This document shows, in pieces, positions 8,532 to 12,255 of a stretch of 13,610 nucleotides of DNA. How positions within the stretch are numbered: the stretch's first letter is position 1; each line of letters begins with the position of its first letter. Source of the stretch: Promethearchaeota archaeon (GTDB lineage Archaea > Asgardarchaeota > Odinarchaeia > Odinarchaeales > JBHLKK01); the NCBI GenBank assembly GCA_048939465.1, contig JBHLPL010000048.1:1-13610 (forward strand). The letters run 5' to 3'. The notes beneath the pieces were generated by a model. That model had not been told where the DNA came from. It saw only the letters and a list, made by a program, of their open reading frames with translations, and ran no database searches. Made by a program: the position numbers and the translations under genes.

Positions 8532-9866
8532 TCATAAGGCAAATACAACAAGAACATACGTAAGGGCAATCCCCAAGCTTATCGGTAGAATGATCCCACT
8601 GTACTTAAGGAATTCCATAGTAGTCAGTTTAATTCCAGATTTTTTCAAAATATCCATCGCAATTATCGTACTTGGTGATCCTATTGGGAGCAGATCGCCG
8701 CCCAGTAAGGCGCAAGAGAGAAGGGACCAGTGCAAAGGATGAGCGTTGGGAAGACCCATAACATTTACGCCCAGCTGCTGGGCAACAGGTATGAATGTCA
8801 AGGCCACAGGTATATTATCAACCACGCCTGATAGCAGACCACCTATCAGGCCCATAAGGACGATCGCCAAGGGAAGATTCGCACCGACTACGGCTCCCAA
8901 TCCGCGAGCGATTGCATCCAGCACACCTGCTGCCTCAACTCCGCCGATTGTAATGAACAGACCTATGAAGAAAAATATGGTATCCCATCTAACCTTTCCT
9001 ATCGATTCTTCCACTCTTCTCGTAAAGAAGAGCATCGCTATTGCTCCCAAAAGGGCAGCAAAACCTATGGTGATTCCAAAAGATCTCCCTATCACGAAAA
9101 GTATTATCACACCGGTCAGCACGGCTGCCGAACTGTAGAAGAAGTAAATGTTCTCTACCACGCTCCACGCATCAAATGCATCCAGCTGTGACCGGATAAC
9201 TGAGACCCTCGACTCAGAGGGAGTAATCAGTTTCTTTCTGTTCATTCTTCTTAGTACGAAGATTAGAACCAAACCGAGGATGGTTGCCAGGGGAAGTCCG
9301 GTGATCGCAAACTCACCGAACCCTATAGGGGGATCAACACTCGGGTGTGATGCAATCGTGATGCTTGGTATTGAAGACGTGACCAAAGCCATTCCCGCCG
9401 CGTCTGCCACAAAAACCTCTGATATGACATATGGCAGAGGATCATATTCCAGAACATCACAAGCTATCATTGTCAACGAACCAATGATCATGGTCGAAAC
9501 GATGTTTCCGATTATGGTCGTGAAAAGGAAGATAAGTGTACACATGGTGGTCAGGAGCTTTGCGGGGCTATCCCCTACTCTCTTTATGACCTGAATAGCG
9601 ATGAATTGAAAGAGCCCACTTTCTCGCGCAACTTCCACTATGATTAGCATTCCGACGATAAGCATTATTGTTTCCAGCTCAATGAATTCCAGCGGGTTGA
9701 CAAGACCTGGCGGAGTTGGATGTTCAAAGCTAAACATGCCCAATGCGATGCCTGCGATCATCGTTGCCACAGCTCCAACCAGTGCTGCAAGAACCCTCGG
9801 TATTTTCTCGGTGAGAATTAGGGCGTATACTACAACCAGGATTCCCACGAACACCCACATCGACAT
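8532..9866 (-). CDS. ArsB/NhaD-like (IT superfamily, SLC13/P-protein related) ion transporter
   Basis: About 12 hydrophobic segments. Motifs KIPRVLAALVGA, GMLIIVEVARESGLF, KVRWDTIFFFIGLFITIGGVEAAG and SGVVDNIP. AGGTGA RBS. Confidence 0.88.
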   Translation of the reverse strand: MSMWVFVGILVVVYALILTEKIPRVLAALVGAVATMIAGIALGMFSFEHPTPPGLVNPLEFIELETIMLIVGMLIIVEVARESGLFQFIAIQVIKRVGDSPAKLLTTMCTLIFLFTTIIGNIVSTMIIGSLTMIACDVLEYDPLPYVISEVFVADAAGMALVTSSIPSITIASHPSVDPPIGFGEFAITGLPLATILGLVLIFVLRRMNRKKLITPSESRVSVIRSQLDAFDAWSVVENIYFFYSSAAVLTGVIILFVIGRSFGITIGFAALLGAIAMLFFTRRVEESIGKVRWDTIFFFIGLFITIGGVEAAGVLDAIARGLGAVVGANLPLAIVLMGLIGGLLSGVVDNIPVALTFIPVAQQLGVNVMGLPNAHPLHWSLLSCALLGGDLLPIGSPSTIIAMDILKKSGIKLTTMEFLKYSGIILPISLGIALTYVLVVFAL

Positions 9867-10141
9867 CGATTCTCACCTGCGGAGTAAACGCAAACCAAAA
9901 TACGACTGCTACTATATTGTGAACCTTGATTATATTCTTTTCTGAGTAGGGATCGACAGAGGGATTTCACAGTAGACCGTGTTTGTGTCGGTTCTTTTGT
10001 GCTTTTGGGGCCAGGGTCTTTGTCAAAAAACCTATGTTCATGTAGACTATTCAATCCTAATTAGTTCGTTGTCCAGCGCTTCTTTCCAGTGTAAGTAGAG
10101 TCAACCTTTTGAAACAAGAATCAGAAAAATGATGAAAGCAA

Positions 10142-10717
10142 TCAAATCTTCTTGAGTCTTTCATAATGTCCTTTCATCGATTCTAGCAGTCTTTCAGCAT
10201 CATCAAATCGCTTGTTGATTAACGATTCGAAGAATGATTCTATTTCGGTGGTGTGCATTTTGACGTCATACCCAGCGATCTCAAGACAAACCCCTATCCT
10301 CTCGCGTGCAAAGCTACTCCCCTTTGAAATCTTGATGACTGTCGGTAAGAAATCAATGAGCCTAGAACAGAGCTCTCTGTCCCTGTGTATGGCCTTTAGG
10401 GTTTCCACAAACTTCGGAATTATGAATAATTCTATTCTTTTTGATGAATCACCCTTTCCTAGACTGATTTCGTGCAGACTGTCAAGCAATGATTTTATGT
10501 TGAAATTCACTTCTCTTCTCGCATTGATCCACCTTTTGAATAGGTCCAGTCCTCTTTCTGCCTTTGTCAGTTCATCAACAAATCGATCAACTTGATCCTC
10601 TACGGATTTGACGTCATGAACCAATGGATCCGGGAATTTTGTGAACGCCAGTGACAGGGAGTCTTTGAATAACTCTGCGAATTCAGATATCTTCCTTCTT
10701 ACGGATTCATCACTCAT
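10142..10717 (-). CDS. Hypothetical all-alpha cytoplasmic protein, paralog of 10710-11336
   Basis: 191 aa, charged and amphipathic. GGAG RBS inside the upstream gene, 8-nt overlap. Ungapped homology to its neighbour. Confidence 0.85.
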   Translation of the reverse strand: MSDESVRRKISEFAELFKDSLSLAFTKFPDPLVHDVKSVEDQVDRFVDELTKAERGLDLFKRWINARREVNFNIKSLLDSLHEISLGKGDSSKRIELFIIPKFVETLKAIHRDRELCSRLIDFLPTVIKISKGSSFARERIGVCLEIAGYDVKMHTTEIESFFESLINKRFDDAERLLESMKGHYERLKKI

Positions 10718-11336
10718 TTCTCCCTTTCACCACCGGAACCTGTCCGAATTCGTTCTTCATTTTTTCGAATTTCTTGCCCATATTCTCCAGAAAAACGTCT
10801 GCAATGGAGAGCTGAAAACCAATTAGGGCTTTAAAGAACTTTTCAAAATCTGAACTATGTTTCTTCGGATCGTAGCCGACAAACTTGAGATACGCATCCG
10901 TCCTTCTTAAGACGACTTTGCTTCCTTCAGCAGATTTCTCTATTACTGGAAAAATATCCTCAAGGTCCGTTACTAGATCTCTGTCAACCTCCAGAGCATC
11001 CAGCATTCCTTTCACCAAAGGAAGGAGGATGAGTTTTGCTTTGAGCGTTTGATCTCCCTTCTCGATCTTCATACTGTACAAGGTTTCTAATAGAGACTTC
11101 ATATGATAGAACGCATCCCGTCTTGCCCTTATCCATCTTCCAAATAATTCAATTACCTCATCCGCTTTTGTCAAGTCATCAGTAGTCTGGGCAAGTCTTT
11201 CAAGTATCTTGTTACCTACTGGTTTTAAGGGATCTGGAAAGCTCAGTGAAATGAATGTGAGGGTATCTTCAAACAGTTTGGTAAATTCTGTAATCTTCTT
11301 CTTCACTGGATCTACAATTGTATTATCTCTTTCCAT
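10710..11336 (-). CDS. Hypothetical all-alpha cytoplasmic protein, paralog of 10142-10717
   Basis: 208 aa, ggag RBS, TTTATACA TATA-like element around 11390-11383. Shares FPDPL, LTKA, RWI.ARR, KSLL, KGD and GYD with its neighbour. Confidence 0.85.
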   Translation of the reverse strand: MERDNTIVDPVKKKITEFTKLFEDTLTFISLSFPDPLKPVGNKILERLAQTTDDLTKADEVIELFGRWIRARRDAFYHMKSLLETLYSMKIEKGDQTLKAKLILLPLVKGMLDALEVDRDLVTDLEDIFPVIEKSAEGSKVVLRRTDAYLKFVGYDPKKHSSDFEKFFKALIGFQLSIADVFLENMGKKFEKMKNEFGQVPVVKGRNE

Positions 11337-11524
11337 TTTCTTTCTCCAAGATAGTATTATTGCCGGTGTGAAATTAACCTTTTGTATAAACTGCGGTGTT
11401 GAAATCAGTCTCTTATGACGCCATGGTTCTTCATTTGAGTGTCTCTTATCAGGCTGCTGAGTTCCTTGTTCAGGTCACCCATTGAAATAGACCCATAGCC
11501 TGATGCTGCAGAAGATATCTCTCT

Positions 11525-12124
11525 TTAACGGCTGTATCTTTCTTCCTTCCACGGATCTCCGCGAATATGGTATCCGTGGGACTCCCAAAATCCTGGTCTG
11601 TTTTCTTCTGTGAATTCTACACCAGTAACCCATTTGGCGCTTTTCCAGAAATAAAGCCTCGGTACTATAAGCCTTACAGGATATCCATGTCCTGGGTCCA
11701 GCAATTCGCCGTTGTGCTTTAAGGCAAATAAAACATCTGGTTCGAAGAAGTCACTCAGCGGAAGATTTGTGGTAAAGTTCCCCATCGCATGGACAATAAT
11801 GTAACCTGCTTCAGGAAGAATCCTGACAAGATCTTTGATTACGGCTGAGCTCACTCCTTCCCAACGATTGTCGAGTTTCGACCAGCCGGTAACACAGTGG
11901 ATATCCGAAAGAACTTCTGTCCTTGGCAGCTTCATGAATTCTTCGAAGTTGAGTTTCCGCTCTTTCTCCACTAAACCTGAAATTGTGAAGGTCCATCTTG
12001 AGGTGTTAATTTCCGGCACTTTCCCATAATGAAGTACCGGCCACTTTTCTAAAACCCTTTGACCCGGCGGAATCCTGTTCTTTCTCTTAACGTCTGGACT
12101 TACGATTGTTTTCCCATCATTCAT
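11525..12124 (-). CDS. Sulfite oxidase-like molybdopterin oxidoreductase (single-domain, MsrP/YedY-related, no Tat signal seen)
   Basis: RIPPGQ, WPVLHYG, DIHCVTGWS (Moco Cys), HGYPVRLIVPRLYFWKSAKWV, GFWESHGYH. ATG 12124, with ggacggtg RBS and TTTTATAA TATA (12172-12165), is preferred over 12226. Confidence 0.93.
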   Translation of the reverse strand: MNDGKTIVSPDVKRKNRIPPGQRVLEKWPVLHYGKVPEINTSRWTFTISGLVEKERKLNFEEFMKLPRTEVLSDIHCVTGWSKLDNRWEGVSSAVIKDLVRILPEAGYIIVHAMGNFTTNLPLSDFFEPDVLFALKHNGELLDPGHGYPVRLIVPRLYFWKSAKWVTGVEFTEENRPGFWESHGYHIRGDPWKEERYSR

Positions 12125-12255
12125 AGAGGCACCGTCCAATCCGATTCTTAGGTCGAGAAGCTCCTTATAAAACCATTCGCTGATCCTATCGAATCCTATT
12201 GAGCAATACTGTTTCCTAAAGAACAAATGATCTCCGATTGCGTGTTATGATTAAC

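Follow-up and report, generated by a model that had tools for sequence, protein, structure and literature searches.

No known prokaryotes are more closely related to eukaryotes than the Asgard archaea, the lineage-specific helical and coiled-coil proteins of which could include unrecognised components of the cytoskeleton, of trafficking or of chromatin. Described families that are similar in appearance to the proteins reported here include PhoU_div/DUF47 (PF01865) and ESCRT-III/Snf7 (PF03357), the members of which are all-helical, of similar size and sometimes encoded as sets of paralogs; DUF47 proteins are, in addition, paired with transporters. The window that we analysed, a stretch of 13,610 nt from the genome of a Promethearchaeota archaeon, carries two adjacent genes, here called A and B, the products of which resemble these families in size, in helical character and in being encoded by paralogs, and differ from them in charge pattern, gene context and profile similarity. 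A and B are best read as members of a small family, as yet without a name and restricted to Asgard archaea, the proteins of which are soluble, all-alpha and about 190 to 220 aa long. As to what these proteins do, we favour, tentatively and with somewhat less than even confidence, a reading in which this is an Asgard-only orphan family of non-enzymatic helical scaffold or adaptor proteins with an ancestral coiled-coil partner, and in which A and B form a hetero-oligomer.

Gene A (P0001; 10710-11336, minus strand) encodes 208 aa and is the upstream member of the pair, and gene B (P0002; 10142-10717, minus strand), its downstream paralog, encodes 191 aa; both were delimited as open reading frames and translated. 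It was found by BLASTP that 66 of 186 residues are identical (35%), with 62% positives, no gaps and an E-value of 6e-43, and therefore the likeness of A and B is far beyond chance. The two genes overlap by 8 nt, ATGAGTGA (10717-10710, minus strand), read directly from the DNA, such that the start of B lies within the last codons and the stop of A: the A frame reads ...AAT GAG TGA and the B frame ATG AGT GAT. The overlap is identical in a second genome of the same genus (G001). Two Shine-Dalgarno-like sequences lie inside the 3′ end of A, GGTGA (10731-10727, minus strand), which is 9 nt before the ATG of B and conserved in G001, and GGGAG (10724-10720, minus strand), which is 2 nt before this ATG and present only in the genome that contains the window; these are candidate ribosome-binding sites for B. 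The tandem, overlapping and gapless pair of about 35% identity described in the initial annotation, with a ribosome-binding site for the second gene inside the first, was thus recovered, the site itself being putative. In a comparison of this genome with G001, dN/dS was 0.13 for A and 0.14 for B at a dS of 0.65-0.85, which indicates purifying selection on both frames, and therefore A and B are both real genes. They evolve faster than the neighbouring genes (dN/dS of 0.03-0.09 between the same two genomes) and at rates that are near-identical to each other.

The order of A and B is the same in G001, three more metagenome-assembled genomes (MAGs) have an A-type gene next to a B-type gene, as judged by consecutive locus tags or accessions, and one JGI contig of 4.2 kb carries genes of both types. 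The coupled tandem arrangement is therefore real and is retained in at least five related assemblies. In NCBI annotation, close relatives of A and B appear as hypothetical proteins from Candidatus Hodarchaeota MAGs. The relatives of the pair are 80-87% identical and, because all of the carriers are close kin, this shows that the arrangement has persisted in a single lineage rather than that it has recurred independently; no further copies of the pair came to light in two metagenome scans. In compact prokaryotic genomes, unrelated neighbouring genes often have short start-stop overlaps, and for this reason the overlap alone argues weakly for a complex. The strict length conservation that had been read as a mark of an A-B partnership is a trait of the family: the paralogs on contigs C134 and C35 can likewise be aligned with A and B with no internal gap, and gapless alignment is a property of the whole local family that is not specific to the pair.

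At E≤1, Pfam and NCBIfam gave nothing above noise for either A or B, a Pfam scan of 34 family members gave only scattered sub-threshold coiled-coil matches, and PHROGs and PADLOC gave no match for the family; the sub-threshold noise across these scans consisted of ATG17_like, ApoLp-III, LmuB and similar coiled coils. Searches of PDB sequences, both with single sequences and with a 34-member profile, returned only coiled-coil chance matches (E≥0.0045), and the ESM Atlas gave no usable match. The statement that the proteins belong to no recognised family was thus borne out in Pfam, NCBIfam, PDB sequences, PHROGs and PADLOC, and we consider it highly probable that A and B belong to an orphan family matching no characterised family in the libraries searched. 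PhoU/DUF47 and ESCRT-III had been suggested as leads at the outset, and the genome has two canonical ESCRT-III genes and one canonical DUF47 gene, with the products of which the family could be compared directly. In hhalign, the family profile matched the two ESCRT-III proteins with probabilities of 0.2% and 0.2% and the DUF47 protein with a probability of 0.6%, and no Pfam match to PF03357 or PF01865 was obtained; both leads were therefore negative in profile comparison. The basic-N/acidic-C charge pattern of ESCRT-III was absent from A, B and the 34 members: the net charges of the N- and C-terminal halves are +1/-1 in A and -1/+1 in B, with no consistent asymmetry over the 34 sequences.

The distribution of the family was determined by an exhaustive HMM search of 1.84 billion cluster representatives with the profile of the window's own genus and no restriction on length. 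It was found that 31 representatives matched at E≤1e-3, all but two of them 132-256 aa long, the other two being long proteins with weak, multi-stretch matches; fused A-B forms were absent from the results of this search. Of 400 Asgard genomes, 44 carry the family (16 of 85 genera, in about eleven GTDB families), with one copy per genome, or occasionally two, everywhere except in the window's genus, in which the counts are 8, 8 and 3. An obligate 1:1 heterodimer had been proposed for A and B, with a prevalence of single-gene homologs named as a finding that would count against it, and this proposal fared poorly against the finding that nearly all of the 44 genomes carry one copy: because most members are single genes, hetero-association cannot be a family-wide property, and an obligate 1:1 A-B heterodimer is a putative arrangement, possible for this pair and weakened by its single-gene relatives.

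The genome that contains the window (an assembly of 1.96 Mb that is 91% complete) carries seven full or partial paralogs and one fragment at a contig end. A and B form the only tandem among these; the other six copies are dispersed single genes with pheST, an aminotransferase gene, an acetyl-CoA synthetase gene, IS200/IS605 genes, mch/fae-hps or a tubulin-like GTPase block as neighbours. Three of the eight copies are at contig ends (the end of C35, the start of C105 and the end of C3), and the C105 copy adjoins an IS200/IS605 tnpA-tnpB pair; the true copy number may be higher, or some copies may lie beside mobile elements. Beyond the IS200/IS605 genes downstream of the C105 copy there is a gene for a 703-aa protein (L012:2878-4989) with a weak N-terminal match to the clathrin-adaptor small chain (longin-like; E 1e-4, just above the Pfam cut-off). 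The C134 paralog (L009:8210-8821, minus strand) is part of a run of minus-strand genes (L009:2357-10665) that includes a 426-aa Tubulin/FtsZ-family GTPase with a long helical protein on either side, a nucleotidyltransferase and, upstream, unknown proteins of 429 and 123 aa. One subfamily is located immediately downstream of mch (methenyl-H4MPT cyclohydrolase) and beside a divergent fae-hps fusion gene, an arrangement kept across two GTDB families that belong to one order (L013:868-3911 on contig C57 of this genome; L036, L038, L042 and L043).

In a maximum-likelihood tree, A, B and five other lineages form a poorly resolved radiation, in which A groups weakly with the C134 copy (80/85) and not with B. 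Of the old duplication that the initial annotation had supposed, the homology of A and B therefore stands, whereas A is not resolved as the closest paralog of B. This bears on a second reading, which we regard as a realistic possibility though not a probable one, namely that A and B are duplicates that have diverged and act independently, each as a monomer or homo-oligomer and with a partner of its own, and that their adjacency and overlap are simply what a tandem duplication left behind in a compact genome. Such independence would be consistent with the tree, with the Shine-Dalgarno-like sequence that B has for itself, and with the occurrence of the six other copies and nearly all relatives as single genes amid unrelated neighbours (mch/fae-hps, uvrB, polB/thiF, pheST, acetyl-CoA synthetase, IS200/IS605 and the tubulin-like block). 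It accords less well with the presence of the pair in at least five assemblies, with the exact preservation of the 8-nt overlap at about 80% protein identity and a dS of 0.65-0.85, and with the near-identical rates of A and B. If A and B are ordinary, independent adaptors of this kind, then they represent merely one more family of hypothetical proteins.

The favoured reading, a scaffold or adaptor family with an ancestral coiled-coil partner, draws on the contexts of the single-copy relatives. A family member is located directly upstream of, and on the same strand as, a gene for a coiled-coil protein of about 650 aa at 7/7 loci retrieved from GTDB family f21 and 2/2 retrieved from f22. The ~650-aa protein is mostly coiled coil, ends in a C-terminal MarR-type winged helix and has no sequence relative in the PDB. 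At 7/7 f21 loci, the coiled-coil gene is followed by genes for a MoxR-type AAA+ ATPase (AAA_5) and a VWA protein, whereas in f22 both contigs break off within the coiled-coil gene. The gap between the member and the coiled-coil gene ranges from 149 nt down to a 4-nt overlap, the latter at one f22 locus. The resulting four-gene, co-directional unit is seen at L054:5105-12147 (genome G089) and also at L049, L055, L058, L059, L060 and L064, and in part at L063 and L068. The flanks of this unit often include HypF upstream, with a convergent M48 peptidase gene downstream.

The distant single-copy members and the window's genus were compared by hhalign, the distant profile being built from sequences of GTDB families f21, f22 and f25-f27. 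It was found that the two profiles match with a probability of 99.0% and an E-value of 8.7e-18 over 179 columns, end to end, and that the own-genus profile finds the distant representatives among the 1.84 billion proteins at E-values of 1e-8 to 2e-4. Therefore, A, B and the distant single-copy members are one family. The single-copy members resemble A and B in their length of 190-220 aa and in conserved W, (L/I)P and GY(D/x)P positions; in contrast, the sequence identity is about 15%, and the single-copy members are encoded beside the coiled-coil/winged-helix gene, whereas A and B are a tandem pair. The adjacency to the coiled-coil/winged-helix, MoxR and VWA genes is a context of some lineages and is not needed for membership in the family.

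In the window's own genome, tblastn found no homolog of the ~650-aa rod protein and hmmsearch found only short coiled-coil/winged-helix fragments. The MoxR locus of this genome (C139) contains no family member, its ORFs of 191 and 449 aa being unrelated. Because neither a rod partner nor a member at the MoxR locus was found here, the rod context may not apply to A and B. An extended version of the scaffold reading, which we consider unlikely, would assign to the family the ancestral task of capping, bundling or nucleating a long coiled-coil/winged-helix rod, which the MoxR and VWA proteins would remodel, with eight specialised subunits in this genus, A and B as an obligate heterodimer or copolymer, and the whole as a cytoskeletal or chromosome-tethering assembly. 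If this were true, then the prokaryotes closest to eukaryotes would possess an archaeal scaffold system that has not been described.

The family proteins are all-helical and soluble. The AlphaFold2 model of A (mean pLDDT 85.4, pTM 0.67) has helices at residues 10-32, 44-91, 97-126, 129-153, 163-172 and 176-197, followed by a C-terminal tail of about 8 residues (201-208) that is predicted to be disordered. The model of B (mean pLDDT 92.3, pTM 0.72) has helices at residues 3-27, 39-86, 91-148, 158-167 and 171-190, with lengths of 25, 48, 58, 10 and 20 residues, and A is built alike, except that its third helix is interrupted. There is no invariant column in the 34-sequence family alignment, which argues against an enzyme. 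The initial description of helical proteins that lack a catalytic motif is thus in agreement with the models and the alignment, and, because no residue is invariant across the family, it is most likely that its members are non-enzymatic scaffolds or adaptors that act through helix-helix contacts with other proteins.

A Foldseek search of the PDB with both models found nothing at E≤1e-3. VIA-align against all PDB representatives, again with both models, gave flat lists at Z 8.2-9.8; according to the guidance for this program, helical models can reach about Z 13 by noise alone, and therefore these matches show only a common helical arrangement. A second VIA comparison, with the top chains from Foldseek, covered A. 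The superpositions were of two kinds. Residues ~52-135 of B superposed tightly (1.7-4 Å over 66-97 residues) on alpha-hairpin arms, for example in membrane-fusion proteins, seryl-tRNA synthetase, the LSD1 tower and the dynein stalk. Whole chains superposed loosely (rmsd 6-9 Å over 136-151 residues), at Z within helical noise, on F-BAR cores, namely syndapin (3i2w; Z 9.1, 149 residues), Hof1 (4wpe; Z 9.1, 151 residues) and Imp2 (5c1f; Z 8.6, 145 residues); the coverage and the Z of SMC coiled-coil segments, PrgA, AhlC and Cg1735 are equal to these. PhoU and DUF47 chains were absent from the listed fold matches, and neither globins nor any other specific family was prominent there, the lists being saturated with generic hairpins. 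From the AlphaFold2 helix lengths and the ranges of the fold matches, rather than from coordinates, we infer a fold in which a helical-bundle base carries a long, protruding antiparallel alpha-hairpin arm. The helix boundaries suggest that the arm would consist of the C-terminal half of the 48-residue helix and the N-terminal half of the 58-residue helix, with a conserved (E/G)KGD loop at its tip.

A third reading, that the family is a membrane-remodelling or filament module like BAR/F-BAR or ESCRT-III/PspA proteins and that A and B are its heterodimeric or copolymeric building block, appears very unlikely. It would draw on the F-BAR three-helix cores, which are among the matches with the highest coverage, on the listing of Vipp1 (7o3w; Z 9.2, 123 residues, rmsd 7.4) and of the CHMP4B hairpin (Z 8.4, 75 residues), both within a flat list of unrelated hairpins, and on the one paralog that is located in a block with an Asgard tubulin-like gene. 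Against this, the Z values of 8.2-9.8 are below the helical noise level of about 13 and the long alignments have an rmsd of 6-9 Å, the Foldseek E-value for BAR/F-BAR was 0.28 or worse, the hhalign probability for ESCRT-III was 0.2%, the basic-N/acidic-C asymmetry is absent, and no amphipathic or transmembrane signal came out positive.

The neighbourhood of the pair was examined for partners and for the limits of its transcription unit. Upstream of A on the same strand is a gene with a molybdopterin-binding oxidoreductase domain (Oxidored_molyb; 11525-12226), and 275 nt downstream of B, also on the same strand, is a gene for a CitMHS/ArsB-type transporter (8532-9866); the order Oxidored_molyb, A, B, transporter is kept in G001. 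In G001 a luciferase-like monooxygenase gene (L035:9351-10334) is located between the transporter gene and that of a DUF362 ferredoxin, and it is absent from the corresponding place in the window. An alignment of the upstream regions placed a GGAG sequence (11344-11347, minus strand) 7 nt upstream of the ATG of A, within the stretch AATACTATCTTGGAGAA that is conserved between the two genomes. A TATA-like sequence, TTTATACAAAAGG (11378-11390, minus strand), lies 49-54 nt upstream of the same ATG and lacks conservation in G001, and its role as the promoter of A is uncertain.

In an alignment of the spacers between B and the transporter gene, a T-rich stretch, CATCATTTTTCTGATTCTTGTTTC (10111-10134, minus strand), was found right after the stop of B; it is conserved in G001 and is a candidate archaeal oligo-T terminator for the A-B transcript. 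A TATA-like block, AAAGAATATAATCAAGG (9924-9940, minus strand), 58-74 nt upstream of the transporter ATG, is likewise conserved, which argues that the transporter gene would have a promoter of its own. Because of the T-rich tract after B and the separate TATA-like block before the transporter, A and B are best read as a separate bicistronic unit that is probably outside the downstream transporter operon, and an operon shared with the transporter is disfavoured by these conserved terminator-like and promoter-like blocks. The spacer as a whole (9867-10141, 275 nt) is well conserved between the two genomes despite a coding dS of 0.65-0.85, with long identical blocks that include AAAGAATATAAT...CACAATATA.TAGCAGTCGTATT and GGTTTTTTGAC, and it could be a regulatory leader for the transporter gene. 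An Rfam scan gave no match in the window, this spacer included, and a scan of the window for sigma-70 promoters and terminators is not informative for an archaeon.

That A and B are PhoU/DUF47-like regulators of this transporter or of the upstream molybdopterin oxidoreductase, as the conserved one-strand gene order and the size, helical nature and transporter pairing of DUF47 proteins might suggest, is the least probable of the readings considered, given the 0.6% probability against the genome's own DUF47 protein and the lack of a Pfam match, the 275-nt spacer with its conserved T-rich tract and separate TATA-like block, the fact that no other member adjoins such a transporter in any genome examined, and a synteny that, being confined to one genus, is inherited and gives no sign of a functional link.

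Returning to the scaffold/adaptor reading, the gene order in f21 and f22 suggests that in the ancestral state the product of a single gene would have been the partner of a coiled-coil assembly. The family would then have expanded to eight copies in the window's genus, where one duplicate pair, A and B, stayed in tandem, probably on a separate two-gene transcript. Translation of this transcript with a start-stop overlap would lead to roughly equimolar synthesis of A and B, and the two proteins may assemble into a hetero-oligomer. What is new here is the definition of a compact orphan family, the finding that the gene beside the coiled-coil/winged-helix, MoxR and VWA unit belongs to the same family as A and B, and the eight-fold expansion of this family in one genus with small genomes. 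The family also provides concrete, easily expressed proteins of about 200 aa with confident models for assembly studies.

When A and B are set beside described proteins of similar shape, the F-BAR core differs in that the first helix of B is much shorter (25 aa), in the lack of a sequence or profile signal, and in superpositions at Z 8.4-9.1 and rmsd 6-8 Å; it is alike in being an elongated bundle of three long helices, with about 145-151 of 191 residues covered. The central helix-loop-helix of B superposes on the hairpin arms of membrane-fusion proteins, seryl-tRNA synthetase and the LSD1 tower; such arms are antiparallel coiled coils of a generic kind that occur in unrelated proteins, and there is no sign that they share ancestry or function with B.
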